DNA of 47,788 nucleotides from Gemmatimonadota bacterium (GTDB taxonomy: Bacteria; Gemmatimonadota; Gemmatimonadetes; Gemmatimonadales; GWC2-71-9): contig JBGQJV010000003.1 of the NCBI GenBank assembly GCA_041499215.1, positions 1 through 47,788 of the forward strand, written 5' to 3'. The notes under the pieces are model-generated. The model was given only the letters and a program-made list of their open reading frames with translations. It searched no databases and had not been told where the DNA came from. Each line of letters opens with the position of its first letter. The first letter of the stretch is position 1. Of this stretch, positions 40-41,656 are shown one piece after another. The position numbers and the translations under genes were made by a program.

Positions 40-67
40 CTCACTTCTCACTCCTCACTTCTCACTT
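40..67. repeat. Heptamer tandem array (CTCACTY)x4
   Basis: CTCACTT CTCACTC CTCACTT CTCACTT; the last unit contains the stop codon (62-64) of the minus-strand CDS. Confidence 0.9.
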
Positions 68-862
68 CTTGGTCAGAATCTCCTCGAACAGGGCCAGAGC
101 CCTCGGATCCTCCGACTGTCCCAGCCAGAAGAGCGCCGAACGGCGCACCTCGGCGCTGCCGCTGGTGCGGGCGACCCGAATCAGCGCGGGCACCCCTTCG
201 TCTCTTGGTCTCTGCGAGAGGGCGAACACTGCCTGGGTGCGGATGTCGTGATCCTCGTCCTCGCTCTCCGCCAGCTGGCTGAGCCCGACGGTGGCCGAGT
301 CGCCGGCGGCCTGGCTCACCCAGAACACCGCCTGTTTGCGAGCGTCGCGTGGGGCGGCATCGTTCCGGGCCAGCCGCAGCAGCTGGGGCCAGACGGTCAC
401 GCTGTCCGCCAGGGTGGCGGGGAACACGGCGTGCTCTCCGCCGGAATGCCGGGGGTCGGCCGCGATGGTGAGCAGGGCGGCGACCGCGTCGCGCGCCGGT
501 ACCGTGCCCAGGTCGGTGGCGCTCCCGACGTCGGTCCGCCACCGGCCTCCGACCCAGGTGCGCACCTTGGTCACCCGGTGCTCGGTGACGCGGAAGGCGA
601 CCCGCACCGGTCCCGGCTCGCAGGGGCAGTCCCTGTCGCTGTACACCACGTCGTCATCATCGTCCTGGATCCGGTTCCGTCGGCCGTGCCGGATGGTGTG
701 TTCCCCATCGCCACAGACGTCCGGCTGGGCCGCGAAACTCATCCGCACCTCGCCGTTGGGCGCGGCAGTGATGCGCTGGGCCAGCCCCTGGGCCCCCGCC
801 GGCGCGGCAAGCAGCGGAAGAGCCAAGACAGCGCCGGCCAGGCCGATGATCGTGGTTCGCAT
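62..862 (-). CDS. Exported HEAT-repeat protein
   Basis: ATG 862 with AGGGAG SD; signal peptide MRTTIIGLAGAVLALPLLAAPAGA-Q; three C-terminal HEAT repeats (RKQAVFWVSQ, RTQAVFALSQ, RRSALFWLGQ). Confidence 0.85.
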   Translation of the reverse strand: MRTTIIGLAGAVLALPLLAAPAGAQGLAQRITAAPNGEVRMSFAAQPDVCGDGEHTIRHGRRNRIQDDDDDVVYSDRDCPCEPGPVRVAFRVTEHRVTKVRTWVGGRWRTDVGSATDLGTVPARDAVAALLTIAADPRHSGGEHAVFPATLADSVTVWPQLLRLARNDAAPRDARKQAVFWVSQAAGDSATVGLSQLAESEDEDHDIRTQAVFALSQRPRDEGVPALIRVARTSGSAEVRRSALFWLGQSEDPRALALFEEILTKK

Positions 863-938
863 TGCGTCGCTCCCTGGGAACACGTTGCCAATCTCGTGGA
901 CCTGTTGTGGCCTCTGACTGCGGAGTTCACCATCCGCG

Positions 939-1000
939 GTCCGCCCGTCCGCCCGTCCGCCCGTCCGCCCGTCCGCCCGTCCGCCCGTCCGCCCGTCCGC
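939..1000. repeat. Octamer tandem array (GTCCGCCC)x7.75
   Basis: Perfect units directly abutting the stop codon at 1001-1003. Confidence 0.95.
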
Positions 1001-2371
1001 TCACGGCTGCTCAATCACCTGCAGCAGGAACTCGGCGGCGCGCGGGTCGCGGCTCTGCGACAGCCAGAAGATGGCCTTCTTGCGCAGTTCCCTGTCGGTG
1101 TCGGACTTGGCGATCTGCATCAGCTTGTCCACCGCGGCCGTCTCCCGCCGCTGCGAGTACACGAAGATCAGCTGCTCACGCATCGCCGGCTCGGCCATCC
1201 GGTCGTACAGGTTCACCAGGTCGGCAACCGAGGCTCGCGACTGGCCGGCCCAGAACAGCGCCTTCTTGCGGAGCTCGACGTCCTCCTTGGCGTTGAGGGC
1301 AATATCCAGCAGCCACTGGTCGCTCGCCGATGAGCGGATCTGGGAGATCGAGAACAGGATCTTTTCCTTGAGTTCGGCGTTGCCGGTTTTGCCGTACAGC
1401 GTCCGCAGGAACTCGGCATTGCCCGCGTCCCGCGACTGGCCCAGCCAGAACACCGCCTGCTCCCGCACCTCCTCATCCGCGCCCTCCTTGGAGGCCAGGT
1501 CGCGAATCACCTGCTGGGCCCGCGCCAGCTTGGTTTGGGAGAGGGCGAAGACCGCCTTCTTCTGCAGCTCGGGGTCGTGGGAGAACTGCAGGATGGAGTC
1601 GAGCGCGCTCACCGAGCGCTCGGTGCCCACCTGGGACAGCCAGAACACCGCCTGCTCCCGCACCTCGCCGTCTGGGTCCTGCCGGGCGGCGTCGAGCAGG
1701 ATCTGCTCGGTCTCGTCAGTACGCTTCTGGGAGACCAGGAATACCGCCTTCCGGCGGAGGATCTCGGAGCAGCGGTCGCGCCGCGCCAGCACCCGCTTGA
1801 GGATCGGCAGCGCCCGTTCGGCGTCGATCTGCAGCATCGCGTTGAGCGCCGCGATCCGGGTGTCGTCATCGTCGTCCGTGCAGGGCGCGCCACCACCGCC
1901 GGCCGGAGCCGCCGATTCCGCCGCCACTGAAACCCGCCGGGCCGCATCGGCATCGCCCAGTTGGGCGAGCTGGCCCTCCACCCGGGTCCGGAGGGTGGCG
2001 GCGTCGCCGTGGGTCGCCGCCTTGGCGTATTTCTCCTGCTGCTCGGCCAACAGCCGCCGGGCCTCCCGTAGCTCCTCGCCCCCGCCCAGCCGGTAGCGGG
2101 CGAATGCCTCCCAGTAGTAGCTGTCGGCCACGTAGCGTGACTTGGGCTGCTGCTCGCGCAGCTGACGGAACAGATCCGCCGCGTTGCTGTAGTTGGAGGC
2201 ATTGAGCGCGGCCCGCGCGGCGCGATAGAGCGAATCCGCCGGATCGTCGTCGACCCAGCCGCCGAGCAGGGTCCAGCCGGAGCCGGGTTCCGGCAGGACT
2301 GGCGACCCGGTCTCGGGCCGTGCGTGGGTGAAGAGGACACCGGCCAGTACGAGGGCGAAGGTGACGCGCAT
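1001..2371 (-). CDS. Exported HEAT-repeat protein with N-terminal TPR-like (BamD/YfiO-like) helical domain
   Basis: Signal peptide; DPADSLYRAAR...YVADSYYWEAFA TPR-like region; eight HEAT repeats of type REQAVFWLSQ; start overlaps the upstream stop (TGATG). Confidence 0.9.
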   Translation of the reverse strand: MRVTFALVLAGVLFTHARPETGSPVLPEPGSGWTLLGGWVDDDPADSLYRAARAALNASNYSNAADLFRQLREQQPKSRYVADSYYWEAFARYRLGGGEELREARRLLAEQQEKYAKAATHGDAATLRTRVEGQLAQLGDADAARRVSVAAESAAPAGGGGAPCTDDDDDTRIAALNAMLQIDAERALPILKRVLARRDRCSEILRRKAVFLVSQKRTDETEQILLDAARQDPDGEVREQAVFWLSQVGTERSVSALDSILQFSHDPELQKKAVFALSQTKLARAQQVIRDLASKEGADEEVREQAVFWLGQSRDAGNAEFLRTLYGKTGNAELKEKILFSISQIRSSASDQWLLDIALNAKEDVELRKKALFWAGQSRASVADLVNLYDRMAEPAMREQLIFVYSQRRETAAVDKLMQIAKSDTDRELRKKAIFWLSQSRDPRAAEFLLQVIEQP

Positions 2372-3866: not shown

Positions 3867-5021
3867 ATGACTAGGTCCATCGGTTCGCTCTGCACAGCAT
3901 TGCTGGCCGTGGGCCTGCCCGCTGCGCTCACCGCGCAGACCAGGCTTCCGGAGCGGAGGCTGGAGAAACCGGACGCCGAGTTCCAGGAATCGTTTGACCA
4001 GATCGGTGCGCTCCGTGAGTTGCCCAGCGGCAAGCTGCTGGTCGTGGACCTTGGTCCCAAGTCGCTCTTGATGACCGACTTCAAAACCGGCCAGCAGACC
4101 CCGATCGGGCGCAATGGGCAGGGCCCCGGCGAGTATCAGTTTCCCGGCGACCTTATTCCTTATCTGGGGGATTCGACCCTCCTGGTCGACCGGGTCAGTC
4201 GTCGTTTCCTGACGGTGGGCCCCGATGGCAAGCTCGGCAAGACGGTGCCCTTCCCCGACGGGATTCTCGGGCTGGCCCAGCCGAAGGGGGCGGATGCGAA
4301 AGGCAGGATCTACTTCCAGGCGAGTCCGTTCCGCGGACCGGGCGACGGCGATGTGGCGCTGACCATCCCCGACTCGGCGCCCGTAGTCCGCTGGGACCGG
4401 GCCAGCAACAGGTTGGACACGCTCACGCGGGTGAAGATCCCGGCCACCAAGGTGCAACGCACCAGCACGGGGAACGCGAGAGTGGTCATGATGCGGCCAC
4501 AGCCGTATGCGGCCCAGGATGAATGGGCTCCGGCCCCGGATGGCCGGCTCGCGGTTGCGCGGGTGGGGGACTACCACGTCGAATGGCTGGGGGACCGCCC
4601 CGCCCGCGGAACGCCGGTGAGCTACAACCCGGTCCGGCTCGGTGACGGCGACCGGGAGGCCTTCATGGCCGCGATGAAGAACACCCGCAATCGGATCACC
4701 GTGACCAACGGCGGGCCGGGCCGGGGCCAGGAGCTGAAGCCACCCGAGCCCAAGGCAGAGGAGTTCGACTGGCCCGAGTACAAGCCTCCGTTCCGGAGCC
4801 GGTCCGCACTCATCACGTCGGACGGCCAGCTGTGGTTGCAGCGGTACACCTCGGCCCAGGACTCCACTCCGGTGTTCGACGTGTTCGATGCCAACGGCAA
4901 TCTGGCCAGCCGGGTGTACCTCCCCAAGGGCCGGGAAGTGGTCGGGATCGGCCAGGGGACCGTCTACGCGGTGCGGACCGACGGCGACGGGCTGCAGTGG
5001 CTGGAGCGGTATAGACGGTAG
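3867..5021 (+). CDS. Secreted 6-bladed beta-propeller (NHL-like) protein
   Basis: GGAGG SD; signal peptide; IGRNGQGPGEY motif; C-terminal FDVFDANG...DGDGLQWLERY blade. Confidence 0.8.
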   Translation: MTRSIGSLCTALLAVGLPAALTAQTRLPERRLEKPDAEFQESFDQIGALRELPSGKLLVVDLGPKSLLMTDFKTGQQTPIGRNGQGPGEYQFPGDLIPYLGDSTLLVDRVSRRFLTVGPDGKLGKTVPFPDGILGLAQPKGADAKGRIYFQASPFRGPGDGDVALTIPDSAPVVRWDRASNRLDTLTRVKIPATKVQRTSTGNARVVMMRPQPYAAQDEWAPAPDGRLAVARVGDYHVEWLGDRPARGTPVSYNPVRLGDGDREAFMAAMKNTRNRITVTNGGPGRGQELKPPEPKAEEFDWPEYKPPFRSRSALITSDGQLWLQRYTSAQDSTPVFDVFDANGNLASRVYLPKGREVVGIGQGTVYAVRTDGDGLQWLERYRR

Positions 5022-5163
5022 ACGGGAGACGTGAGGCGTGAGGCGTGAGACGTAAGAAGTGAGAGTGAGACGTGAGAAGTGAGACGTGAGAAGTGAGAAG
5101 GGAGACGTGAGAAGTGAGAAGGGAGACGTGAGAAGTGAGAAGGGAGTTGGGAGTTGAGAGTTG
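5022..5163. repeat. Heptamer array (GTGAGAA/GTGAGAC family, about 20 units), left arm
   Basis: Starts right after the stop codon; units drift GTGAGGC > GTGAGAA > GGGAGTT; contains the higher-order 21-mer GGGAGACGTGAGAAGTGAGAA. Confidence 0.95.
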
Positions 5164-5166
5164 AAC

Positions 5167-5261
5167 TGTCATTCCGAGCCGCATTAGGCGAGGAATTCCT
5201 CCGGGTTGGCACGTCGCTCACCCTGAAGGATTCCTCGGGCCTTCGCGCCCTCGGAATGACA
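5167..5261. repeat. 95-bp REP/MITE-like palindromic element
   Basis: Terminal IR TGTCATTCCGAG / CTCGGAATGACA, inner IR GAGGAATTCCT / AGGATTCCTC; second partial copy at 1-16. Confidence 0.85.
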
Positions 5262-5292
5262 ACGTTCCCCGTACCCGCGCCAGATTCCCCAT

Positions 5293-5338
5293 CTCACGTC
5301 TCACGTCTTACACCTCACTTCTCACTTCTTACCTCTCA
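5293..5338. repeat. Heptamer array (CTCACGT/CTCACTT), right arm, inverted relative to 5022-5163
   Basis: CTCACGT CTCACGT CTTACAC CTCACTT CTCACTT CTTACCT CTCA; the final unit holds the stop of CDS 5336-6079. Confidence 0.9.
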
Positions 5339-6079
5339 CCCTTTTCCGCTCATCGCGTACCGCGCCCCGCTCACCTGCCACACCGGGACCGGCTCCACGT
5401 AGCCGAAGCGTCGGAGTGTCATTTCCACCAGCCATTCCCACCCGGCACGCGTCACCGCCTCCACCCACGACATCTCAGTCGCCAGCCTGAGCCAGCGGCG
5501 CAGTGTGCGCGGGTCTACCCCTGCGGTAAGCGCCGCGAGTTCCAATGAGGTGTGCCCCGGCAGCATGGGTGCCGTGAGGATCTGCACCAGGCCTGCCAGG
5601 CCACGCCAGTCGCGGACCTCGAGCGGTCCCAGCGCTCGGACCCGGCGGGTCAGAGTCCGGGGCGGGCGCAGGGCATCACCTCCGTCGCCGAAACAGGCTC
5701 CCAGGGTGCTGGCCGTTCCCGGGCGTGCGAGGCGGCGCTCGACCCATAGCGCGATCGTCGTCGGCTGGGGCGGTGGCCGGCGGGCGATGGCCTTGAGCGC
5801 ACGCTCGATCAGTGTCCAGCCCGGATAGTCCCCCGGGTACAGCGGAGCGAGCACCCCAGGAACCGGCTCGAATGCGGCGAGACACGACGCCGGGACTCTG
5901 CGATCCGCCAGGCAGGTAACCAACGGGCACCAGGGGGCATCGCGGTGCTCCTGCAGCGCCTCGGCCAGGGCGGGGATGCCGTTGGAAAGATCGGCCACGA
6001 ACAAAGCCCCGACGGGTGGGGGAAAGGCCCCAGCCGGCAGCAGCCGCAGGTAGGGCGGCTCGAGGATGAACAGTGACAC
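5336..6079 (-). CDS. Putative transcriptional regulator (degenerate receiver-like N-terminus, AraC-like HTH C-terminus)
   Basis: PPRTLTRRVRALG and SLELAALTAGVDPRTLRRWLR HTH-like motifs; divergent from the 6281 cluster. Confidence 0.6.
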   Translation of the reverse strand: MSLFILEPPYLRLLPAGAFPPPVGALFVADLSNGIPALAEALQEHRDAPWCPLVTCLADRRVPASCLAAFEPVPGVLAPLYPGDYPGWTLIERALKAIARRPPPQPTTIALWVERRLARPGTASTLGACFGDGGDALRPPRTLTRRVRALGPLEVRDWRGLAGLVQILTAPMLPGHTSLELAALTAGVDPRTLRRWLRLATEMSWVEAVTRAGWEWLVEMTLRRFGYVEPVPVWQVSGARYAMSGKG

Positions 6080-10834: not shown

Positions 10835-10835
10835 G

Positions 10836-10907
10836 GTGAACGGTGAACGGTGAAAGGTGAACGGGGGAAGCCACGCACCCGTTCACCGTTCACTCTTCAC
10901 TGTTCAC
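10836..10907. repeat. Inverted heptamer arrays (GTGAACG)x4 / (CGTTCAC)x4
   Basis: Between the MFP stop and RND start; 16-nt centre; followed by CCTTTT. Confidence 0.9.
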
Positions 10908-10929
10908 CCTTTTGGTTTTCGCCCAGCCC

Positions 10930-13900
10930 ATGTCCCTTGCCTCCACCGCCCTCAAGCGCCCGGTCACCACCGTCGCCGCGACCATCGCCCTGGTGCTGCT
11001 CGGCGCGGTTTCGCTGGGGCGGCTGCCGGTCACGCTGCTGCCCGACGTCACCCTCCCGGTCCTGACCATTCGCACGCTGTATCCCGGTTCCGCCGCCACC
11101 GAGGCGTCGCGCTTCGTGGCCGAGCCGGTGGAGGAAGCGATCGCCGCGACGCCGGGTCTGGTGGAGCTCCGGTCCGTCAGCCGCAACGGAGAGGTGACCA
11201 CAACGGCGCGGTTCGCCTGGGGCACCGACATGGCCGCAACCGTCCTCACCGTGCGGGAACGGCTGGACAATGCCCGGTCGCAGCTGCCGGAGACGGCGGA
11301 GCGGCCGACCCTGCTCACCAGCGACCCGGGGCAGCGGCCCATCGCGGTGCTCGGCGTGACGGGCACCGGAGACCAGCGCGCGGTGGCACGGCTTGCCGAG
11401 CAGGTGCTGGCCCGCCGGCTGGAACAGCTGGACGGCATCGCCAGCGTCGCGGTGACCGGAGCGCCCGAGGATGAGATCCGGGTGGAGCTGGACCCGGGGC
11501 GGCTCCGGGCGCTGGGGCTCACCACCGAGGACGTGGTGACCGCGATCAGGAACGCCAACGCCAGCGCGCCCGGTGGCACTATCCGGCGGGGGCAGTTTCG
11601 CTTCTCGGTGCGAGCGCTCACCGAGCTCCGACAGCTCGATGAGTTCGCCGACATCCCGGTCGGACAGGCGGACGGGCGGGCCGGTGGACCGATACGCCTG
11701 TCCGACGTTGGCAGGGTCTCCCTGGCCACTGCGGACCCACGGACCCTCACGCGGCTGGATGGCAACCCTGGCATCGGCCTGGTGGTCTACAAGGATGCCG
11801 GCGCCAACACCGTCGCCGTCACCAGTGCGATGGTGGAGACGGTCGATCAGCTGGGCAAGGAGTTCCCCGAAGTGCGGCTGCGGGTGGTCGCGGCGCAGGC
11901 ACGGTTCGTGACCGACGCGCTGTCCAACCTGACCCAGGAGATCGTCGCCGGCGGGCTGCTCTCGCTGCTCCTGATCTTGCTGTTTCTGCGCGACTGGCGC
12001 AGCGCCCTTGGCATTGGTCTCATCGTGCCGCTGTCGGTGCTGGTATCGCTCACCGCGCTGCAGCTGCTCGACGTGACCATCAACGTCCTCTCGCTCGGCG
12101 GACTGGCTCTCGGCGTGGGTCTGCTGGTGGACAACGCCATCGTGGTCTCGGAGGCTTCGGGACGATTCCGCGAGGAGGGCTACGATCGCTGGGAGAGCGC
12201 GCGCCTGGCGGCCGAAGAGGTCTCCGGGCCGCTGATCGCGGGGACCCTCACCACGGTGCTGGTGTTCGGGCCGATCGTGTTCGTACGTGGGCTCGCCGCC
12301 GCGCTGTTCCGCGATCTGTCGCTGGCGGTGGTGACCTCGCTGATGGCGTCGTTGGTACTCGCCCTGACGCTGATGCCGGTGCTGCTGGTGGGAAGGCGGC
12401 GTTCGGTGTCCGTTCCGAGTTCCAAGTTCCAAGTTCAAAGTGGTTCCGGCGTCGAGCCAACTCGGAACTCGGAACTTGGAACTCGGAACGACTGGCTCAC
12501 CCGGGTTGGACTGCACCTCGCCGAGTGGTACGAGCGGGGCATGATGTGGTCTCTCGATCACCCGCGGACCGTCTTCACCATCTCCATCGTGTCCACCGTG
12601 CTGGCGGTGTGGCTCACCCTGCGACTGCCGCGCGAGATCCTGCCGCAGGTGGATGAGGGGGTGGCCATCGCCAGCCTGCGTCTTCCGGAAGGGACCGCCA
12701 TCGAGGAGACCGCCCGACAGGCGGCCCGGATCGAAACGGCGGCGGCGGGGCTGGGTTCGAAGGGGATCTACAGCCGGATCGGGGCCGCCACCGACGAAGA
12801 ACTGGTCTCCGGGGCCGAGCCCGGCGGGCCGGGCTACGCCCAGCTCCTGTTGCCGGTGCCGGCTGGCTCGGTGGCCCGGGCATTCGCCGACCGGCTCCGG
12901 GCGCGGGTACCAGACCTCGCCCAGGGGAGGCTCGCCATCGACCTGGCGGGGCAGTCGGAGTTCGGCAGCCTCATCGGACGGGAGGGGCGGCTGCTGCGGG
13001 TGGAGATCGCCTCGCCCGACCGCCGCACCACCGCGCGCTGGGCCGACACCGCGCGGACCCTGGTGGCCGCGATACCCGGTCTCACTGACGTCCGCGATGC
13101 CTACGCCGGCACCCAGCCGGTGGTGGAGCTGGGGCTCGAGCGCGAGCGGATCGCTCTGCGTGGTCTGTCTATCGACGCCGTGGCCGCCGCGCTCGCCGGC
13201 GGGCTTGGCGGAGTCAAGGCCAGCGAACTGCGCGAGACCGACCGGCGCACCCCCATTCGGGTGCGATATGCCGGCAGCGCCAACGAGGACCTGGCTACGG
13301 CCCTGGGCGCGACCATCGGGGGAGTCCCCCTCGGGCAGCTGGTCTCGGTCCGCGAAGTGCGCGACCCGGTCGAGGTGGTTCGGGTGGATCAGCGCCCGGT
13401 GCAGGTGCTGGAGGCCGCGGTCGAGGAGGGCGGCACGGCCCGCGCCGTCGAGCGGATCCGCACCACGCTGATCGGGTTGCCGGTGCCCGCCGGCCTCACC
13501 TGGGAAATCGGCGGCGCCGACACCGAGCAGCGGCGCACCCTGTCGGAGATGGGCGTGGTGGCGCTGCTTTCGGTCGCCCTGATGTTCCTGGTGCTGGCGG
13601 GTGAATTCGGCTCGTTCACTACCCCGCTGCTGGTCATGCTGACGGTGCCGCTGGCCGGCGTCGGCGGCATCTTCGTGCTGTGGCTCACCGGCCAGAGCCT
13701 CAACGCCGTGTCGCTGATCGGCATGGTGGTCATGATCGGTCTGGCGGACAACGATGCGGTGGTCAAGCTCGACGCCATCCGCCGGTTCCGCGAGGAAGGC
13801 CATCCGATCCGGGAGGCGGTGCTGCTGGGCGGGCGGCAGCGACTCCGCGCCATCGCGATGACTTCGCTCACCACCATCGTGGGCGTGCTGCCGCTGGTGC

Positions 13901-14157
13901 TGGGCTGGGGTAGCGGTGGTGAGCTGTATCAGCCGCTGGCGGCCGGCGTGATCGGCGGCTCGGTCACGGCCACCCTCGTGACTTTCTTTCTGCTGCCGAC
14001 CGCGTACGCCATGGTGGAGCAGCGCGCCGAGCGCCGAGGGCTGGCGGACGGGCGGACCGGCGGACCGGCGGACTTGAGCGCCCCCGGGTCCGAGGCGCTT
14101 GGCTCACTCGGCGAACTGGCATCCCGCCCGCCCGCCGGTCCGCCCGTCCGCCCATGA
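10930..14157 (+). CDS. RND efflux permease subunit 1 (AcrB/AcrD/AcrF family)
   Basis: ALKRPVTT, GLLVDNAIVVSE, RLRAIAMTSLTT, PLAAGVIGG. Confidence 0.95.
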   Translation: MSLASTALKRPVTTVAATIALVLLGAVSLGRLPVTLLPDVTLPVLTIRTLYPGSAATEASRFVAEPVEEAIAATPGLVELRSVSRNGEVTTTARFAWGTDMAATVLTVRERLDNARSQLPETAERPTLLTSDPGQRPIAVLGVTGTGDQRAVARLAEQVLARRLEQLDGIASVAVTGAPEDEIRVELDPGRLRALGLTTEDVVTAIRNANASAPGGTIRRGQFRFSVRALTELRQLDEFADIPVGQADGRAGGPIRLSDVGRVSLATADPRTLTRLDGNPGIGLVVYKDAGANTVAVTSAMVETVDQLGKEFPEVRLRVVAAQARFVTDALSNLTQEIVAGGLLSLLLILLFLRDWRSALGIGLIVPLSVLVSLTALQLLDVTINVLSLGGLALGVGLLVDNAIVVSEASGRFREEGYDRWESARLAAEEVSGPLIAGTLTTVLVFGPIVFVRGLAAALFRDLSLAVVTSLMASLVLALTLMPVLLVGRRRSVSVPSSKFQVQSGSGVEPTRNSELGTRNDWLTRVGLHLAEWYERGMMWSLDHPRTVFTISIVSTVLAVWLTLRLPREILPQVDEGVAIASLRLPEGTAIEETARQAARIETAAAGLGSKGIYSRIGAATDEELVSGAEPGGPGYAQLLLPVPAGSVARAFADRLRARVPDLAQGRLAIDLAGQSEFGSLIGREGRLLRVEIASPDRRTTARWADTARTLVAAIPGLTDVRDAYAGTQPVVELGLERERIALRGLSIDAVAAALAGGLGGVKASELRETDRRTPIRVRYAGSANEDLATALGATIGGVPLGQLVSVREVRDPVEVVRVDQRPVQVLEAAVEEGGTARAVERIRTTLIGLPVPAGLTWEIGGADTEQRRTLSEMGVVALLSVALMFLVLAGEFGSFTTPLLVMLTVPLAGVGGIFVLWLTGQSLNAVSLIGMVVMIGLADNDAVVKLDAIRRFREEGHPIREAVLLGGRQRLRAIAMTSLTTIVGVLPLVLGWGSGGELYQPLAAGVIGGSVTATLVTFFLLPTAYAMVEQRAERRGLADGRTGGPADLSAPGSEALGSLGELASRPPAGPPVRP
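12412..12489. repeat. In-frame inverted heptamer arrays (GTTCCRA / AACTYGG) inside the RND gene
   Basis: 30-nt arms complementary at 27/30; total length 78 nt. Confidence 0.9.
14043..14153. repeat. Inverted octamer arrays (GGCGGACN x4 / GTCCGCCC-type) in the 3' end of RND1
   Basis: Same octamer as 939-1000 and 41601-41656; ends at the ATG of RND2. Confidence 0.85.
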
Positions 14158-17188: not shown

Positions 17189-17257
17189 ACGGCTGAGACG
17201 GTCGAGACGGTCGGGACGGACGCGTCCGTCTTGGCCGTCTTGGCCGTCCCGTCCGTC
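17189..17257. repeat. Inverted 9-mer arrays around a perfect 16-bp palindrome; possible bidirectional terminator
   Basis: ACGGCTGAG ACGGTCGAG ACGGTCGGG, GACGGACGCGTCCGTC (17215-17230), CTTGGCCGT x2; lies between convergent stops. Confidence 0.8.
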
Positions 17258-23559: not shown

Positions 23560-23654
23560 GTGAAGGGCGCACGGCTAAGGGTGAAGGGGGAGTCGGCGAG
23601 TAGCTGAGACCCTGGCGCCGAGGGACCGTTCACCGTCTACCGTTCACCTTTCAC
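23560..23654. repeat. Degenerate inverted heptamer arrays (GTGAAGG / CGTTCAC)
   Basis: Right arm CGTTCAC CGTCTAC CGTTCAC CTTTCAC; left arm decayed. Confidence 0.7.
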
Positions 23655-23760
23655 TGTTTCGGGGTCCCTCGTTGCGGCCCGCCGTCCCACCTGATACCAT
23701 CCCGCAGTCGGAATGGCCGTCCGGCCCCTCCCCGCACCTCTCTCATTCTGGTCCGATCGT

Positions 23761-24702: not shown

Positions 24703-25607
24703 TCAGCCGGACCCGCGTCGCCGCGTTGGCGGCGCTCCTCGCGGGTGGATCGGCTCCGCCCCCGCCACCGGTCATGATGCTGACCGACGCGGGGCCGGTC
24801 GCGCTGACGGAGGTCAGCCAGGGCGCACTGGCGCGCGGGGCCCGGTGGCGACCCGGCGCCGGCGGGCTCGAGTGGACCGAGCTGAGCCTCCACGGGCGGG
24901 GTGAGAGCCGGCGCACCCGGATCGTGGCTGTGCGGCTCGCCCCGACCCGGTTCCGGCTCGCGCTCGAGAACGGGATGGCGCCCGGAGGGTTCACCCACGT
25001 GTGGACCCTGGATCGCGCGCCGGAACGCGCAGCATTGGCGCTCAATGCCGGGATGTTCGCCGCCGATGGCGCCTGGGGCTGGGTGGTGCACGCCGGCACG
25101 GAATACCGTCCTCCCCGCCAGGGACCGCTGGCCGGCGCAGTCGTGATCGACACGTCGGGCGGGGTGAGACTGGTGGATGACGCTGGGCTCGCGCGACTCC
25201 GCTCCGGCGGCATGGCCACGGTCCGGGAAGCATTCCAGTCCTATCCGGTCCTGCTCGAGCACGGGGGAGCGCTGCCCGAGCTGCTCCGAGTCCCCAGCGG
25301 CGCGATCGACCTGCAGCATCGCGATGCGCGGCTGGCACTCGGAGTGGATGCGGAGGGCCGGCTGATCCTCGCGCTCACCCGGTTCGACGCGCTGGGCCCC
25401 GCCTTCGGTTCGGTCCCCTTCGGCATGACCATCACGGAGATCGCGCTGGTGATGCGCGGACTGGGAGCGGAATCCGCGGTGGCGCTGGACGGCGGGATCT
25501 CCGCCCAGCTGCTGCTCAAGGATGCCGCAGGCGAGGTCCATCGCTGGCCGGGACTGAGGCCGGTGCCGCTGGGGCTCAGTGCCCTACCGGTGAGCAGTGA
25601 GCGGTAA
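24699..25607 (+). CDS. Phosphodiester glycosidase (NAGPA/DUF2233) family protein
   Basis: GTGA overlap; LNAGMF, ARLALG, AVALDGGIS motifs. Confidence 0.8.
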   Translation: MISRTRVAALAALLAGGSAPPPPPVMMLTDAGPVALTEVSQGALARGARWRPGAGGLEWTELSLHGRGESRRTRIVAVRLAPTRFRLALENGMAPGGFTHVWTLDRAPERAALALNAGMFAADGAWGWVVHAGTEYRPPRQGPLAGAVVIDTSGGVRLVDDAGLARLRSGGMATVREAFQSYPVLLEHGGALPELLRVPSGAIDLQHRDARLALGVDAEGRLILALTRFDALGPAFGSVPFGMTITEIALVMRGLGAESAVALDGGISAQLLLKDAAGEVHRWPGLRPVPLGLSALPVSSER

Positions 25608-25717
25608 GCAGTGAACAGTGAGGAGTGAGGAGTGAGGAGTGAGAAGTGAGAAGTGAAGGTCGAGTTACCACTCACCGCCACTTCTCACTTCTCACTTCTC
25701 ACTTCTCACTGCTGACT
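25590..25717. repeat. Inverted heptamer arrays (GTGAGSA/GTGAGAA x10 / CTCACTT-type)
   Basis: The left arm begins inside the CDS, encoding VSSER-stop; lies between convergent genes. Confidence 0.92.
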
Positions 25718-29310: not shown

Positions 29311-29432
29311 ACGGGTCGGGGCGGATGATCCAGTCGTGGATTATCGGCCGAAAGTGGGCGGACGTGAGTTTTCGTGGAAGCTGGGTTGGGTCAGGGACTT
29401 CGCTGTAAGTCATTCTATAGCAGGCTGTTGTC

Positions 29433-29480
29433 GGTCAGGCTGTCAGGTGGTCAGGCGGTCAGTCGGTCCGACAGTCGGAC
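29433..29480. repeat. Degenerate octamer array (GGTCAGGC-like x6)
   Basis: GGTCAGGC TGTCAGGT GGTCAGGC GGTCAGTC GGTCCGAC AGTCGGAC. Confidence 0.65.
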
Positions 29481-32293: not shown

Positions 32294-32368
32294 AGTTCCA
32301 AGTTCCGAGTGTGGGGCCGCACAGCCGTGCGGCCCCACTGGGAACTCGGAACGCGGAACCCGGAACTT
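32294..32368. repeat. Inverted heptamer arrays (AGTTCC / GGAACNC) enclosing a perfect 12-bp hairpin
   Basis: GTGGGGCCGCAC-agcc-GTGCGGCCCCAC at 32311-32338 between the arms. Confidence 0.85.
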
Positions 32369-34798: not shown

Positions 34799-35871
<1,073 letters not shown>

Positions 35872-35922: not shown

Positions 35923-36047
35923 TTCCGCAGATTAAACGGATTTGAGGGATTACGCAGATTAGCGTTTGGTTTACCACATTTGGTCTACCATTCCTGTGTT
36001 CGTGTTCTCAATCATTTCAATCCGTGCAATCTGCGTAATCTGTGGAA
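35923..36047. repeat. Inverted 9-mer arrays (CGCAGATT / AATCTGCG type) around an AT-rich centre
   Basis: TTCCGCAGATT...TACGCAGATT / AATC...AATCTGCGT AATCTGTGGAA. Confidence 0.85.
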
Positions 36048-36881: not shown

Positions 36882-36886
36882 GGGCC

Positions 36887-37041
36887 ATTAGCCGTTAGCC
36901 GTTAGCTGCTCGTCTTGGAGCCACCCTCGCCTCTGGCGCCGAACCAGGAATGGGTCACAACTCGGACGGCTAACGGCTAACGGCTAACGGCTAACGGCTA
37001 ACGGCTAACGGCTAACGGCTAACGGCTAACGGCCAACGGCT
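36887..37041. repeat. Inverted heptamer arrays (RTTAGCC x3 / ACGGCTA x9 perfect + 2)
   Basis: Left arm 36887-36907, right arm 36966-37041. Confidence 0.95.
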
Positions 37042-37160
37042 CTACTGCGCCAGCAACCCCTCCAACCCGGCCGTTCGCAGCAGCCGGGCGTAGCGGGGGT
37101 CAGAGGCCAAACCGTGGTGGTCGTACGAGGGCGGCGCGAAGATCGACTGGCGGCTTGACC
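37042..37160 (-). pseudogene. Possible orphan C-terminal gene fragment
   Basis: Reads ...GLASDPRYARLLRTAGLEGLLAQ-stop, like the L-x-x-DPR-F/Y-x-x-LL tail of TPR/kinase proteins; its stop abuts the array. Confidence 0.4.
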
Positions 37161-37228
37161 ATGGGCGACTAAGATACCCCCGGCCGGGGCAGGCGAAACA
37201 TCTCACCGATCACCCCTTACCCTGTTCG

Positions 37229-37522: not shown

Positions 37523-37525
37523 GGA

Positions 37526-37617
37526 TTCCGAGTTCAGAGTTCCAAGTTTCGGGTGACGGATCAGCATCCGAAACTGGACACACCTGTGCTCGTGAACTTG
37601 GCACTTGGAACTTGGAA
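37526..37617. repeat. Inverted heptamer arrays (TTCCRAG / CTTGGAA)
   Basis: Same unit family as 12412-12489 and 32294-32368. Confidence 0.85.
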
Positions 37618-37624
37618 CCCCAGA

Positions 37625-39226
37625 ATGCTCCTCCTCCTTCTCTTCGCGCTGCAGGCCCCCGACCCGCTTGCGGTGCGCGCCGACACCCTCAGGCCGCGGC
37701 ACGACGCGATTCATCATGACGTGACCCTGGTGGTGAGCGATACCGGAAACCACATCCTCGGGATGGTACAGACCACCTGGGTGCTGCGCTCGGCCGAGCC
37801 GGTGGAGGTGCAGCTGGACTCGAGCTTCAGGGTGATCCGGGTGCTGACCGATGGGGAGGGCGACGACCGGATGGGGCGCATCACCTTCGCGCTCGATTCC
37901 GGCGGCGGGGTCTACATCCCCCACAAGAAGGCCGCGGGTGACACCCTGCACACCACCATCCGCTACCACGGGCCGGTCCGGGAGGGACTGGTATTCGGGA
38001 CCGATGCCGGCGGCCGGCGCACGCTATTCGCCGACAACTGGCCCGACCGGGTGCACCACTGGCTGCCACTCGAGGATCACCCCAGCGACAAGGCCACGGT
38101 GACGTTCCACGTGGAGGTGCCGCCGGGGATGCAGGTGGTGGCCAACGGAGTGCTCTGGAAGGTGGACACCCTCCTCCGCGGCCGAACCGTCTGGCACTTC
38201 GACATGCGCCAGCGGATCTCGCCGTACGGCATGGTCATCGGAGCGGGACGACTGGCAACGACAGTCCTGCCCGATGCCGCCTGCGACGTCAAGTGCGTTC
38301 CGCTTGCCGTGGTGACGTACCCCGAGGACTCGGCCTGGGCGGTCAATGGCCCGTTCCGCCGGGCGGGGGAGATCATCAAGTATTTCAGCTCCCTGGTGGG
38401 GCCGTTCCCGTACGATCGGCTGTCGCACGTGCAATCCACCACCATCTTCGGCGGGATGGAGAACCCCACGGCCATCTTCTACGATACCAAGGCCTACGCC
38501 GAGAAACGGCTCAAGGAAGAGACGGTAGCGCACGAGACGGCGCACCAGTGGTTTGGCGACGCGGTGACGGAGGACGACTGGCATCACCTGTGGCTGTCCG
38601 AAGGGTTCGCCACCTATTTCGCCGCGCTGTGGGTGCGGCATGCCGAGGGCGACAGCGCGTTCCGCGCGCGCATGGAGCAGCACCGCGCGAGCGTCCTCAG
38701 CGCCAAGGTCACCGCCCGCCCGATTCTCGATTCCGCCGCCGCCGATCTGATGGGCCTGCTCAACAGCAACAACTATCAGAAGGGCGCCTGGGTGCTGCAT
38801 TCCCTGCGCGGGCTGATGGGCGACAGCGCCTTCTTCCAGGGGATGCGCGAGTGGTACCTCATCTACCGGGACAGCACCGGACTCTCATCGGACTTTGCCG
38901 GAGTGATGGACCGCGTGGCGGGGAAGGATCTGACCTGGTTTTTCACTCAGGCACTGACGCAACCGGGGTACCCCAAGCTGGACGTCACCTGGCGCCACGA
39001 GGGCGGAAAGCTGACCCTGACCATCCGCCAGGTGCAGCCGCCGGAGTGGGGGCGCTTCCGGCTCCCGGGGCTGGTGATCGCGCTGGACGGAAAGCCGGTG
39101 AGGGTCGACATCAGCGGTGCCGAGACCGTGGTGAACCGGCCTGGCTTCAAGCGCCCGCCGAAGCAGATCGTGGTCGATCCCGGAGGATGGTGGCTGCTCG
39201 AGGCGTCGGTGAGCGAAGCCAGGTGA
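37625..39226 (+). CDS. M1 family zinc aminopeptidase
   Basis: GGMEN, HETAHQWFG-...-WLSEG, YQKGAWVLH. Confidence 0.95.
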   Translation: MLLLLLFALQAPDPLAVRADTLRPRHDAIHHDVTLVVSDTGNHILGMVQTTWVLRSAEPVEVQLDSSFRVIRVLTDGEGDDRMGRITFALDSGGGVYIPHKKAAGDTLHTTIRYHGPVREGLVFGTDAGGRRTLFADNWPDRVHHWLPLEDHPSDKATVTFHVEVPPGMQVVANGVLWKVDTLLRGRTVWHFDMRQRISPYGMVIGAGRLATTVLPDAACDVKCVPLAVVTYPEDSAWAVNGPFRRAGEIIKYFSSLVGPFPYDRLSHVQSTTIFGGMENPTAIFYDTKAYAEKRLKEETVAHETAHQWFGDAVTEDDWHHLWLSEGFATYFAALWVRHAEGDSAFRARMEQHRASVLSAKVTARPILDSAAADLMGLLNSNNYQKGAWVLHSLRGLMGDSAFFQGMREWYLIYRDSTGLSSDFAGVMDRVAGKDLTWFFTQALTQPGYPKLDVTWRHEGGKLTLTIRQVQPPEWGRFRLPGLVIALDGKPVRVDISGAETVVNRPGFKRPPKQIVVDPGGWWLLEASVSEAR

Positions 39227-40008
39227 AACCGCCGCCCTTCTCGGGGGCCGCGGTGGCGCTGCTGCTCCTTGCGGGTTGCCGCGGTACCCTGTCGCCCCTC
39301 TCCAACCGGCTCAAGCTTGGTGAGGAGGCGTACATCGTCTTTACCGCCGATGGGGAGGATGGGAAAGGAGACCTGTTCGCCTCGCCTGCAGCGGGGGGCA
39401 AGAGTTTTCAGGTCACGTTCACCAGGGTGGATGAGCGGGCGCCGGCCCTTTCGCCTGATGGCGTGGTGCTGGCCTTCCTTCGGAGCATCGCGCCGGGAGA
39501 CACGAGCGGCGTATCGGTGGTGTTGCTCAATCTGCTGAGCGGGGCGGAGCGGAGGGTCGATGCACCACCGGGCGCCTCTTCGCTGGCCTGGTTACCCGAC
39601 GGAACGGTGCTGCTGGTCCGGGCTGCCTCCGGGATCCTGCGTAGCGCCGCACCCCCCCAGCCGTTGACTCTCGAGCCGGTGCCGGCATCCGGTCAGGCCC
39701 CTGCGGATTCCCTTCTCCGTGTGCTGCTGGGAGATCCGGCGGTCGGCGAGGCAGGCCGTTGCGCGAGCGGCACAGGGGTCTGTGCTCGGCTCGCCAACGG
39801 CGACAGTCTCACATTGTCGACCGAAGGCAGTTATCCCGCGCGGTGGGGGACCGACTCGGTCGCGTATCTCGAGCGGGGCAGCTTCGTCATCCGCCCACTG
39901 GCCGGGGGGGCGACCAGGACCGTGCGTTGGACCGAGTCGATCGAGCACCCGCGGGGGCTGACCTATTTTGGGGGGGCGCCCAGACGGGGAAACACAGCGG
40001 GCCAATAG
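39223..40008 (+). CDS. Lipoprotein with TolB/PD40-like repeat
   Basis: GTGA overlap; lipobox LLAG-C; PALSPDG-x2-LAF. Confidence 0.8.
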   Translation: MKPPPFSGAAVALLLLAGCRGTLSPLSNRLKLGEEAYIVFTADGEDGKGDLFASPAAGGKSFQVTFTRVDERAPALSPDGVVLAFLRSIAPGDTSGVSVVLLNLLSGAERRVDAPPGASSLAWLPDGTVLLVRAASGILRSAAPPQPLTLEPVPASGQAPADSLLRVLLGDPAVGEAGRCASGTGVCARLANGDSLTLSTEGSYPARWGTDSVAYLERGSFVIRPLAGGATRTVRWTESIEHPRGLTYFGGAPRRGNTAGQ

Positions 40009-40037
40009 CCAGTTACACTCACCCGCCCCTCCGGACC

Positions 40038-40661
40038 CTATCCACCGGTTCCGTTCCCCGCGCCAGGCTTCGCGGCAATAGCATCCCACGCCGCTTCCAG
40101 GGCCATGCCCATCGGCGCGCTGTCCGCGGTCCACTCACCGGAGGCCACCCGTTCCACGGCGTATCCGACGATGGCCAGCCACACCGAGGCCCAGAGCTCC
40201 GCCGGCCCCGGCCTCACCTGCCCGTCCGACTTGCCCATCGCCACCAGCTGCACCAGCCCGTCGACAAACTCCCGCTTGAGCCCCCGGCTCTGCTGGTCGA
40301 GGAACGGCTCATGCGCGGTCGAGAAGAGCATCCGCACCAGGGGCGGGTCCGCCGCCGCGGTATCGGTGAGGGTGCGAGCCAGCAGCGCCAGCCGCTCAGG
40401 CCCGCGTCGGGCACGGTCGCTTTCGAAGCCTTCGAGCACGCCGAGGGCCCAGCGCTGGGCTCGGCGATAGGCCTCGTTGAGCAGATGCTCCTTGCTGGTG
40501 AAATGCCGGTAGATGGTGCCTTCGGCCACACCCGCCCGTTGGGCGATTGCCGGCGTGGTGGTGCTCAGAAAGCCACTCGCGCCATACAGTTCCAACGCGG
40601 CGCGCAGCAGGCGCTCGCGGGTCGCCTCGCCGTCTCGCCGGTGGGTCCGGGCAGTCGTCAT
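40038..40661 (-). CDS. TetR/AcrR family regulator
   Basis: TRERLLRAALEL...IAQRAGVAEGTIYRHFTSKEHL. Confidence 0.95.
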   Translation of the reverse strand: MTTARTHRRDGEATRERLLRAALELYGASGFLSTTTPAIAQRAGVAEGTIYRHFTSKEHLLNEAYRRAQRWALGVLEGFESDRARRGPERLALLARTLTDTAAADPPLVRMLFSTAHEPFLDQQSRGLKREFVDGLVQLVAMGKSDGQVRPGPAELWASVWLAIVGYAVERVASGEWTADSAPMGMALEAAWDAIAAKPGAGNGTGG

Positions 40662-40805
40662 GTCGACAATCTACGGTTTCGTTCAACTTCCGGCGCCCCC
40701 GGCCGATGATTCCGAATGGACGGGTCGGGATCCCCAGCCGGGCGGATAGAGGACAGGGTTACCTCTTCTAGGGCTACGGGGTCGCGACCCGTCCCGTTTC
40801 CGGCC

Positions 40806-40900
40806 GTCAGCCATTAGCCATCAGCCATCAGCGATGAAGGGTGAACGGTGAACAGGAGACGGAATTCGGAACTGGAAACTCGGAACTCGGAACTTTGAAC
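40806..40900. repeat. Composite heptamer array (ATCAGCC > GTGAACG > GAACTCG) in one 7-nt register
   Basis: 13 consecutive heptamers from three unit families. Confidence 0.85.
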
Positions 40901-40983
40901 CCCGATTCAGCCTTTCTTCAGAGCCCCCCTACCACCGTGGTGTAACTTCAAATAGGTGGGGCTTACTTGCAGGAGTAGTGCAG

Positions 40984-41517
40984 ATGCTGGATTTCAGGTC
41001 GTTGTGGGAGCAGGCGTTGCCGTTCGACCAGTTTGTCGCGGCCACGGCCGAAGAGCACCGGGGGCTGTGGCAGGGGGTGCGCCGCCTGGCCCGGGTGCCG
41101 GAGTGGGCGGAAACAACTCTTCCAGAGGGCGAGGAGCGGCGCCTGCTGGTGCTGGCCGAGGACTGGTGTGGCGATGCCTCCAATACGGTCCCCGTTCTGG
41201 CCCGCTGGGCGGAGGCTGTCGACGGACTCTCGCTCCGGATTCTGCGCCGGGATGAGCACCCTGAGGTCATGGATCGATACCTGACCAACGGCTCCCGCTC
41301 GATTCCGATCGTGATCGCCCTGGATGAAGAGTTCAACGAACTGGGCCACTGGGGTCCTCGCCCACGCGAGCTCCAGGCCTGGGTCCTGGCCAACAAGAAC
41401 ACCGTGGAAAAGGCCGAGCGGTACAAGGAGGTCCGTCGCTGGTACGCCCGGGACAAGGGTGAGACGACGATCCGGGAGGTGCTCGAGGCCATGGGAGTGC
41501 AGGCAGAGGTGATCTGA
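40984..41517 (+). CDS. Thioredoxin-like protein (WCGD type)
   Basis: AGGAG SD 8 nt upstream; EDWCGDA, TNGSRSIP, WGPRP. Confidence 0.92.
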   Translation: MLDFRSLWEQALPFDQFVAATAEEHRGLWQGVRRLARVPEWAETTLPEGEERRLLVLAEDWCGDASNTVPVLARWAEAVDGLSLRILRRDEHPEVMDRYLTNGSRSIPIVIALDEEFNELGHWGPRPRELQAWVLANKNTVEKAERYKEVRRWYARDKGETTIREVLEAMGVQAEVI

Positions 41518-41656
41518 GGCGAGAGGGCGGGAAGGCGGACCGTCCATGCAACGAAGGGGTGAGTTCCTCACGGAACCCACCCCGTTGCCTTACCCTGTTG
41601 GTCCGCCCGTCCGCCCGTCCGCCCGTCCGCCCGTCCGCCCGTCCGCCCGTCCGCCC
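41518..41656. repeat. Inverted octamer arrays (decayed GGCGGACN x3 / GTCCGCCC x7)
   Basis: Each arm touches the stop codon of one of the two convergent genes. Confidence 0.9.

Follow-up and report, generated by a model that had tools for sequence, protein, structure and literature searches.

What are the short tandem arrays, most of them facing one another in inverted pairs, that recur along the 47,788 nucleotides of contig JBGQJV010000003.1 in the assembly of a Gemmatimonadota bacterium (GCA_041499215.1, labelled G000 here)? The window that we analyzed is this whole contig, C3 in our numbering. A preliminary description, drawn from the letters alone, had taken 16 loci as one dispersed family of inverted 7-9-mer arrays, constant in architecture and interchangeable in unit sequence, and had suggested that they might be empty cassettes of a small, undescribed mobile or RNA-processing system. 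We have followed these loci through the entire assembly, which comprises 4.74 Mb in 443 contigs with 68% G+C and is rated 96% complete, and into other genomes. With somewhat more belief than doubt, we lean towards the view that the loci belong to a large population of palindromic mini-elements, made up of many families and alike in kind to the stem-bounded intervening sequences (IVS) found in 23S rRNA, with a population structure like that of REPINs or of miniature transposable elements with inverted repeats (MITEs). Those in the window would then probably, if by no means securely, be members without an open reading frame (ORF) of an IVS-like palindromic mini-element family, most of whose copies carry none.

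The first question is whether the loci are real. Tandem Repeats Finder (TRF), run on the window and followed by a direct reading of the sequence for inverted arrangement, yields all 16, at or within a few nucleotides of the positions first described, and every unit sequence named for them occurs in the window. All 12 proposed inverted pairs are present, two of them (23560 and 35923) in degenerate form; direct reading uncovered the degenerate left arms at 23560 and 32294, as well as the CGCAGATTA-type pair at 35925-36046 that TRF had overlooked. The supposed four single arms need revision, in that the array at 35-69 is cut by the contig edge, so that its partner cannot be judged, and that at 40803-40894 is really three different half-arms. 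The centres between arms are indeed unrelated, with a measured span of 6 nt (17189) to 151 nt (5012), rather than 0 to about 130 nt. Eleven of the 16 loci begin or finish no more than 15 nt from a stop codon, as judged from crude gene calls by a home-made codon-bias caller whose stops are reliable and whose starts are not. Five of the window hairpins fold at -39 to -70 kcal/mol (z = -4.4 to -9.5), which none of 200 shuffles matched. Rfam models at the gathering threshold give no match in the window, and hence no rRNA.

The same arrays abound throughout the genome. After merging, TRF gives 1974 arrays that have a period of 7-9 and 2.8 or more copies, compared with about 147 in an order-3 Markov genome of equal length; for periods of 7, 8 and 9 nt the counts are 1175, 466 and 333, versus 52, 61 and 34 in that control. 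Arrays of the same unit (at most one mismatch) lying within 150 nt of each other are inverted in 399 cases and direct in 5, and at distances of 1-3 kb the two orientations are equally common, with 107 cases each. Because of these array and pair counts, together with the fold z-scores, a chance origin is excluded. The non-redundant inverted pairs number 402, and there is about one ORF-less copy per 12 kb. A further 1169 arrays are unpaired, of which 230 have a degenerate inverted partner (34 in the direct control) and 140 lie no more than 260 nt from a contig end.

We find it scarcely credible that these arrays are artefacts of assembling a fragmented metagenome bin. It is true that the assembly is in many pieces, that 46 contig ends lie no more than 60 nt from an array, and that the contigs of other runs break within the two longest arrays, including the long arm of 36884-37041. 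However, arms of ~31 nt are shorter than a read, and three further sediment-metagenome runs (short-read unitigs, from samples possibly related to the source and so perhaps not independent) cover 37028-41629 and 32000-33862 without a gap at 20-64x word depth. The same architecture is found, moreover, in congeners, in other phyla and in the isolate Thiohalocapsa marina DSM 19078. As a separate matter, the arrays are a main cause of the assembly's division into 443 contigs.

Two rules govern the anatomy of the elements, whatever their unit. The units themselves are diverse: the genome's arrays comprise 76 distinct canonical heptamers and 50 octamers, and at least 16 families occur as pairs. Each unit consists of a conserved core of about 5 nt (GTTCC, GTGA or GGCGG) plus variable positions, and variant units tend to mirror each other across the two arms. 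The first rule concerns arm length, whose median is 32, 32 and 35 nt for periods 7, 8 and 9, or about 31-32 nt overall; in the AACGCGG family the interquartile range is 30-32 nt in both arms. Copy number runs at ~4.4 units for 7-mers, 4 for 8-mers and 3.6 for 9-mers. That is, length is held constant and copy number is not. Clear expansion of arms is confined to families of the GTGAGAA type. The second rule concerns polarity, which is uniform across all pairs in each of the 16 largest families: the left-side arm is GTGAGAA in 53 of 53 pairs, CGTTCCG in 53 of 53, GTTCCGA in 46 of 46, and AGCCGTC in 23 of 23. This cannot be an orientation effect, since A...A' differs from A'...A on both strands. 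Thus the notion of a single dispersed family with constant architecture and interchangeable units is upheld, as is the contention that ordinary slippage alone is insufficient, since it would not fix polarity in every family or keep arms at ~31-32 nt regardless of period.

Between the arms there is little such order. When the 316 centres of at least 18 nt are clustered, 274 match no other centre; among those that are shared, 35 contain a nested palindrome and 3 a small GCCGCACAGCTGTGCGGC hairpin. The nested palindrome, GTCATCCCGAG...CTCGGGATGAC, is ~91 nt long and MITE-like, with 75 copies genome-wide, one of them in the window. It has arrays on both sides in 31 copies, on one side in 20 and on neither in 24, and sits preferentially in the loops of GTGAGNN-family hairpins.

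Some pairs enclose genes, and these genes connect the arrays to the IVS of rRNA. This genome has four matches to TIGR02436, the intervening-sequence protein (IVP; 23S_rRNA_IVP in Pfam), and one to TIGR04256, the GxxExxY protein (PDDEXK_3 in Pfam). Three of the four IVP genes, as well as the single GxxExxY gene, lie tightly between matching inverted arrays (Table 1). The arm types of these three IVP genes are all families that also occur as ORF-less pairs, and the window itself contains, at 35925-36046, an ORF-less copy of the GxxExxY arm type. The association extends well beyond this genome. Among homologues of the C116 protein from one-per-species genomes, we could assess 73 loci with both flanks available, and 32 of these lie between inverted arrays, mostly of ~4.4 heptamers, in at least 10 phyla; by record label the hosts include Gemmatimonadota, Acidobacteriota, Desulfobacterota, Gamma- and Zetaproteobacteria, Gallionella, Planctomycetota, Chloroflexota, Verrucomicrobiota, Zixibacteria and others, with Thiohalocapsa marina again among them. 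Within the genus to which the window belongs, an IVP gene occurs in 17 of 20 congeners; of 28 loci examined, 21 are flanked, and the 7-, 8- or 9-mer differs from one locus to the next. GxxExxY homologues on metagenome contigs are flanked in 27 of 65 cases, always by the CGCAGATTA 9-mer, in ~3 copies, the arms having a median length of 26 nt. The statement in the preliminary description that such arms flank TIGR02436 and GxxExxY genes was therefore correct, both here and elsewhere.

In a tree of IVP proteins, the arm unit tracks the protein clade, and part of this clade-wise pattern is ordinary vertical inheritance. For two pairs of loci with differing phylum labels on their records, in Thiohalocapsa and a Desulfobulbaceae metagenome-assembled genome (MAG) (L040 and L038) and in a Desulfobulbaceae and a Zetaproteobacteria MAG (L045 and L096), nucleotide similarity starts inside the left arm. 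ORF-less pairs of TCGAGTT and AACTCGA, for their part, number dozens in two Acidobacteriota genomes. A few side observations on enclosed sequence may be recorded here. The similarity of L040 (1935-2141) to L038 extends ~200 nt past the right arm, which suggests a second conserved piece beside the cassette. The G+C content at third codon positions (GC3) of the cargo genes on C116, C243, C233 and C68 is 0.63-0.72, versus 0.81-0.90 in the ordinary-looking ORFs L005, L006 and L010; such low values are in keeping with cargo genes of foreign origin or under weak selection. Inverted pairs separated by 200-1500 nt, of which 68 are listed, are mostly neighbouring elements of the same family that flank an ordinary gene, and we rejected them as cassettes for this reason. 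A crcB (fluoride channel) gene with GC3 of 0.90 (L006) lies between TCCCGCCC and GGCGGGAG arrays at C236:1735-2217, and here either two separate elements flank the gene or a normal gene lies inside one pair.

The elements turn over among relatives. Three tandem GTGAGAA units, with at most one mismatch, are matched 487 times in this genome and not once in any of 18 congeneric species. The closest relative found (G011, whose RND transporter orthologue is 89% identical in protein sequence and which is syntenic with the window at 72-89% nucleotide identity) carries, in the 444 kb sampled, 158 arrays per Mb and 10 pairs, or 22 per Mb, compared with 416 arrays and 85 pairs per Mb here. The GTTCCGA family accounts for most of the pairs in G011, and their polarity agrees with that in our genome. 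Three window loci, 12412, 32294 and 37526, are common to both genomes; the orthologue of 32294 is of the same family with a different centre, and at the site of 37526 there is one arm, (ACTCGGA)x5.6. G011 has no arrays at the sites of 939, 36884, 40803 and 14043, at the last of which both arms are missing and the centre of the window's element aligns weakly to G011 sequence, and at the site of 5012 there is just a 13-bp GAGGAGTGAGGGG hairpin.

Across the genome, both flanks of 35 elements could be mapped in the G011 sample, 23 of them with well-aligned junctions. At some of these sites the family is kept and the unit variant has changed, and the centre cannot be aligned; at others a different family or another hairpin occupies the site; and one element, at C27:26047, gives a clean 114-nt presence/absence difference in frame. 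We rejected the other apparently clean empty sites upon re-alignment, so that C27:26047 alone remained. Presence/absence polymorphism and turnover at orthologous junctions thus exist. Since neutral sequence is saturated at this divergence, such comparisons show turnover and cannot separate insertion from loss. We also note that, within our genome, the elements at C226:157 and C118:12777 have identical 25-nt flanks and near-identical centres, which could be a recent duplication or one locus assembled twice.

The arms may alternatively be made on the spot, by a repeat-adding activity that extends both 3' ends of a break or an incoming fragment by several tandem copies of a short template, followed by fill-in and joining, so that inverted arrays of one polarity would flank whatever was in between. 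Such an activity would explain the fixed polarity, the period-independent arm length and the unique centres, along with the presence of arms around unrelated cargo (IVP, GxxExxY, and a nested palindrome that is bare in 24 of its 75 copies); at 14043 the centre between the arms can be aligned with G011 sequence that has no arms, as this explanation would have it. That alignment is weak, however, and the assembly offers neither a reverse transcriptase that we could find nor a candidate polymerase. The unit, furthermore, tracks the cargo clade across hosts, and GxxExxY genes always have the same 9-mer, for which inherited arms are the better fit. We therefore consider it quite improbable that arms arise in this manner.

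The placement of the elements relative to genes is far from random. Of the 402 pairs, 256 lie in tandem gaps, 75 in convergent gaps and 22 in divergent gaps, which makes 353 intergenic pairs, compared with 272, 40 and 40 expected from the numbers of gaps; 35 are intragenic and 14 are at contig edges. An arm starts between -5 and +10 nt from a stop codon in 246 of 327 cases. Where a tandem gap leaves 20 nt or more free, 103 of 173 elements hug the stop, versus 27.7 +/- 4.5 under random placement, a significant enrichment, and 141 of the 173 are closer to the stop than to the next start (p = 1.6e-17). There are also 26 elements, from stop-free families, that are read through in frame inside long ORFs. 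For example, the 78-nt element at 12412 lies in the linker after about residue 500 of an RND (AcrB-type) transporter ORF (10912-14157), and the same linker is open in congener orthologues as well, which have arrays with other units there (CGTTCCG in G011; 8-mers in G008, G001, G031 and G009). The element at 14043 encodes the C-terminal tail of this transporter and overlaps the start (14154) of the next RND gene.

Such placement could also reflect selection by the host for hairpins at the 3' ends of genes (terminators without a U-tract, barriers to 3' exonucleases, or operon punctuation) that every gene end would need in some form, that grow by slippage of a 7-9-nt unit and whose arm types spread from site to site by ectopic conversion, with no mobile element involved. 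The elements do hug stops and avoid divergent gaps, and their folds are very stable, with a mean of -66 kcal/mol for elements of 113 nt and z down to -9.5. Moreover, G011 often has a different hairpin or one or two like units at the corresponding site (the 5012 orthologue, C68:7213, C93:5304, C32:22113), and the long, unequal arms of the GTGAGAA family resemble the products of slippage. Nevertheless, a T-rich tail follows 9 of 240 elements, compared with 8 of 240 on the control side, and this missing U-tract rules out the canonical form of the intrinsic (Rho-independent) terminator. In 136 of the 240 the next start lies 0-40 nt downstream, so that the element is inside a likely operon, and 26 elements are in frame inside genes. 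Selection for stability predicts neither a fixed polarity nor an arm of ~31 nt across periods 7-9, identical arms enclose IVP and GxxExxY genes across phyla, and the sense strand is not favoured: sense versus antisense folds stand at 117 to 122 (p = 0.90), and G-U pairs at 664 to 618. In light of these results, we think it unlikely that host selection on hairpins accounts for the elements.

We return, therefore, to mini-elements of the IVS kind. The mechanism that might lie behind the anatomy, the rules, the cargo association, the placement and the turnover, all of which are plainly observed, would be as follows. The ORF-bearing copies would be the parental form, and the hundreds of ORF-less hairpins their derivatives, persisting and multiplying as selfish DNA. 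The arms alone would be needed in cis, with their complementarity kept at the DNA level, and the centres would drift or be replaced; slippage would expand and contract the arms, most visibly in the GTGAGAA family. By analogy with the Coxiella IVS, the ~31-bp perfect RNA stem may be a substrate of the RNase III type, and handling of this type would explain why such elements can be tolerated within rRNA, between cistrons and after stops. The RNA-processing system first proposed for these loci draws on this same analogy to rRNA IVS cut by RNase III, and it is weakened by sense folds that are no better than antisense ones. No RNA run was found to contain the stretch 32000-41990.

A number of results weigh against our reading. 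The centres are unique, with matches elsewhere in the genome, weak ones included, for only 33 of 240, so that copy-and-paste of whole elements is not what one would predict, even in a young-looking family. The equality of sense and antisense folds gives no support for selection at the RNA level, and there is no RNA-strand signature. Of four 'empty' sites in G011, three retain a single unit or the decayed remains of an arm (C32:22113, C86:10156 and C398:771), and such remnants mean that the difference between species may largely be loss or expansion at old sites. No target-site duplication is seen at the G011 junctions compared, which are old (~80% nucleotide identity). The assembly contains no match to Y1_Tnp (PF01797) or RVT_1, where control genomes did give Y1_Tnp matches, although in a fragmented, 96%-complete assembly absence is not proven; the enzyme that had been postulated outside the window is thus not to be found as a Y1 transposase or reverse transcriptase. 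Among the surveyed loci, 41 IVP and 38 GxxExxY loci failed our arm detector, which scores tandem arms only and not other stems. A seeming cross-phylum transfer between L040 and L087 was rejected, since the flanks are syntenic at ~90% identity. Finally, the IVP is a non-enzymatic four-helix bundle and two unrelated proteins share the architecture, so the enclosed proteins may be passengers rather than drivers.

If they are drivers, a bolder reading suggests itself, which we put forward tentatively and think rather more apt to be wrong than right: IVP pentamers and GxxExxY PD-(D/E)XK proteins would be the specificity factors of an unrecognised class of mobile element, each clade recognising its own ~31-nt arms as a DNA or RNA hairpin, and would promote the copying both of cassettes built arm-cargo-arm and, acting in trans, of ORF-less hairpins. 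Were this true, it would bring under one system the rRNA IVS, the STRR arrays of cyanobacteria, the 'G4' heptamers of Xanthomonas, the 'regulator sites' of Geobacter, and the hundreds of hairpins found here after stops and in frame.

The window loci and the enclosed genes are collected in Table 1. Two of the loci call for comment. In the CGCAGATTA-type pair without an ORF at 35925-36046, the centre is AT-rich relative to the 68% G+C genome. At 40803-40894 the half-arms of three families stand head to tail without partners, and may be the debris of several elements.

Table 1. Array loci of the window, in order of position, followed by the array-enclosed genes found elsewhere in the assembly. 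Numbers after x are copy numbers; contig labels are given for genes outside the window.
Feature	Position	Strand	Context	Basis
Single arm (CACTTCT)x5, right-arm form of GTGAGAA family	35..69	.	Contig edge; overlaps stop of gene 62-883(-)	TRF, gene call
Single arm (GTCCGCCC)x7.8	939..1000	.	Abuts stop of gene 1001-2371(-); not at orthologous G011 junction	TRF, gene call
Pair, ~20 GTGAGAC/GTGAGAA-type units (5012-5163) / ~7 units (5292-5339)	5012..5339	.	Between two convergent stops	TRF
Nested 93-nt palindrome GTCATTCCGAG...CTCGGAATGAC	5168..5260	.	In loop of 5012 element; member of 75-copy family	
Pair (GGTGAAC)x4.3 / (CCGTTCA)x4.3, 14-nt centre	10835..10908	.	Arms 10835-10864/10879-10908; fills gap from stop 10834 to start 10912; RNA fold -48.7 kcal/mol, z = -8.1	TRF
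Pair (GTTCCRA)x4.3 / (AACTYGG)x4.4, 78 nt	12412..12489	+	Arms 12412-12441/12459-12489; in frame in RND ORF	
Pair (GGCGGACN)x3.9 / (CCGCCCGN)	14043..14153	+	Arms 14043-14073/14123-14153; C-terminal tail of RND ORF	TRF
9-mer pair (GAGACGGTC)x2.8 / (CCGTCTTGG)x2.6, 6-nt centre ACGCGT	17189..17255	.	14 nt past stop at 17180; fold z = -6.3	TRF arms 17195-17219/17226-17248
Degenerate pair, GGTGAAG-type / CCGTTCAC-type arms	23560..23658	.	~25 nt past stop 23534	TRF array 23625-23658
Pair (GTGAGNA)x9.6 / (CACTTCT)x4.6, 22-nt centre	25590..25710	.	Arms 25590-25656/25679-25710; overlaps stop at 25607, convergent genes either side; fold z = -7.8	TRF
Single arm (CGGTCAGG)x4.6	29432..29468	.	Divergent intergenic region	TRF
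Pair, GTTCCNN / NNGGAAC family	32294..32366	.	9 nt past gyrA stop	TRF array 32341-32366
Degenerate 9-mer pair CGCAGATTA / TAATCTGCG, no ORF	35925..36046	.	Arm type that encloses GxxExxY genes	
Pair (GCCGTTA)x3.3 / (ACGGCTA)x10.9	36884..37041	.	Arms 36884-36906/36966-37041; 2 nt past stop 36881	TRF
Pair (TTCCGAG)x3.3 / (GAACTTG)x3.6	37526..37618	.	Arms 37526-37548/37594-37618; 3 nt past stop 37522	TRF
Half-arms (GCCATCA)x4.3, (TGAACGG)x2.7, (CGGAACT)x5, adjoining	40803..40894	.	Divergent intergenic region	TRF
Pair (AGGCGGGA)x2.8 / (GTCCGCCC)x7	41517..41656	.	Arms 41517-41538/41601-41656; spans gap between convergent stops 41517 and 41656 exactly	TRF, gene call
IVP gene	C116		Arms GTTCCGC / GCGGAAC	
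IVP gene	C243		Arms AGGGCGGG / CCCGCCCT-type	
IVP gene	C233		Arms GTGAGAA / TTCTCAC	
GxxExxY gene	C68		Arms CGCAGATTA / TAATCTGCG	

For 35 years, scattered reports have treated paired tandem-heptamer repeats as targets for fingerprinting, as G-quadruplex motifs or as regulator sites, without a mechanism, and rRNA IVS have been called selfish elements for equally long. This genome shows an architecture common to both, with a rule that holds across families: arms of ~31 nt, fixed polarity, and a unit type that goes with the clade of the enclosed protein. ORF-less copies reach a density of about one per 12 kb and enter coding sequence in frame. The mobility and function of IVS-type elements thereby become testable, through the binding of arms, RNase III cutting in mRNA, and the agent of copying. 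There are practical consequences as well: assemblies of short reads break at the arrays, which may also pass for CRISPR-like repeats or for regulatory sites and which add low-complexity peptides to predicted proteins, such as VPRSAFRVPRS...AERGTRNAERGT and GGPADRRTGGP...SARPPVRPS.

It remains to compare these elements with known systems. The REP/REPIN-RAYT system reportedly comprises hundreds of extragenic hairpin doublets, each with two inverted arms and a spacer that is less conserved, in several families per genome and at the 3' ends of genes, with a gene flanked by its own repeats. Our elements resemble it as inverted doublet hairpins in many extragenic copies (353 intergenic pairs of 402). 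Unlike REPINs, their arms are tandem units rather than a single imperfect palindrome, their centres are unrelated, no Y1/RAYT gene was found in the assembly, and the enclosed genes encode a four-helix bundle and a protein of the PD-(D/E)XK fold. A MITE would have terminal inverted repeats, a target-site duplication and a related autonomous insertion sequence with a transposase. Inverted arms are present here; no transposase partner was found, and no target-site duplication is visible at the old G011 junctions. Rickettsia palindromic elements are likewise palindromic mini-elements tolerated in frame inside protein genes; their sequences and hosts are unrelated to ours, and their arms are not tandem repeats.

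The analogy drawn at the outset was to the STRR heptamers (short tandemly repeated repetitive sequences) of heterocystous cyanobacteria, which, since a 1990 report attributed to Mazel et al., are said to be dispersed tandem heptanucleotide arrays with several unit types per genome. The analogy holds for the architecture and for nothing further: the phylum is different, the units appear to be other ones, and our genome has 68% G+C. In PMC4692102, STRR are cited as three tandem heptanucleotides of Calothrix PCC 7601. MacGregor's TAACTGA repeats, as presented in the pertinent passages of PMC4679880, were considered and rejected, being direct repeats upstream of starts with one inverted case only.

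The paired architecture itself is not undescribed, for it appears in Xanthomonas (PMC4692102) and in Geobacter metallireducens (PMC2700814), under other interpretations in the passages concerned. Rehm et al. (2015, PMC4692102) describe the heptamers GGGAATC of Xanthomonas and GGGGAYT of Nostoc, one G-rich unit per genome, which they read as forming G-quadruplexes and to which they trace the four-unit rule; by the account given there, 70-75 pairs in Xanthomonas are inverted on opposite strands, lie near or overlapping stops and between co-oriented ORFs, are rare between divergent ones, and are mostly transcribed. The paper does not mention xcc0516, and it connects these repeats with neither IVP nor GxxExxY genes. 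In G. metallireducens, Aklujkar et al. (2009, PMC2700814) describe 'putative global regulator binding sites' of classes 1-3, read as IHF/HU sites and built of 4 octamers, of 3 units 8-9 nt long or of 5 heptamers (24, 21 and 8 pairs), some of them within genes; within the genus they are confined to this species and are absent from G. sulfurreducens. Their two opposite-strand sites of 3-5 tandem 7-9-nt units at variable spacing are just what is found here; in the passages on them cargo genes do not appear, and neither stop codons nor polarity are analyzed. By contrast with the architecture, the link of tandem-repeat arms to IVP and GxxExxY genes and to rRNA IVS is one that we did not find in the literature searched; 10.1101/2021.01.26.428298, for instance, mentions GxxExxY in passing only.

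Both of these interpretations could be carried over to our arrays, which would then be binding sites for an abundant DNA-binding protein (IHF/HU-type) or G-quadruplex motifs, with a pairing that reflects their use. Short tandem repeats are typical of multi-site protein binding, and the Geobacter pairs (4x8, 3x9 and 5x7 units, with variable spacing) and the preference for four units in the Xanthomonas pairs near stops speak in the same sense, as far as the passages cited above go. However, 76 heptamers, 50 octamers and at least 16 paired families are too many for one regulator, and the elements are placed after stops, not at promoters. A G-quadruplex, for its part, takes four consecutive G-tracts, one per unit, and the largest families here (GTGAGAA, GTTCCGC, GTTCCGA and AGCCGTC) have no G-tract of 3 or longer; some 8-9-mer families (GGGCGGGA) could form one. 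Most units, among them GTGAGAA, GTTCCGC and AGCCGTC, thus lack a G-tract and yet form arms of ~4.4 units. Since arms are kept at ~31-32 nt across periods, including in units without a G-tract, quadruplex formation cannot explain the four-unit rule and is not the common denominator with Xanthomonas. We consider this explanation very improbable.

A close counterpart, finally, is the IVS of 23S rRNA. In Coxiella burnetii, the IVS is 428-444 nt long and contains the S23p ORF, and its 28-bp terminal inverted-repeat stem is cut in mid-stem by RNase III, according to the portion of PMC4990558 that treats it; the solved member of the IVP family, Xcc0516, is cited there and in PMC3936711 as a homopentamer of four-helix bundles. 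Parts of other reports place IVP ORFs in the rRNA insertions of candidate phyla radiation (CPR) bacteria (10.1101/2024.02.27.582315) and wedged between cas genes (PMC3936711), and the latter position fits an element that lodges between cistrons. The copies in our genome differ in where they lie, since those of the window are all after stops, in gaps or in protein ORFs, and none is in helix 9, 25 or 45 of 23S rRNA; they differ also in their hundreds and in their many types of tandem 7-9-mer arm. The likeness lies in the plan: an IVS consists of an inverted repeat, an IVP ORF and an inverted repeat over ~430-510 nt, with a stem of ~28-31 bp and with ORF-less versions, and it is sporadic, seemingly horizontally transferred and regarded as a selfish element in the accounts cited. 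Here, too, a stem of about that length surrounds the insert (arm medians of 31-32 nt), and here, too, the IVP ORF inside the stem is optional, being present between arms in three of four cases in this genome and in 32 of 73 and 21 of 28 elsewhere.

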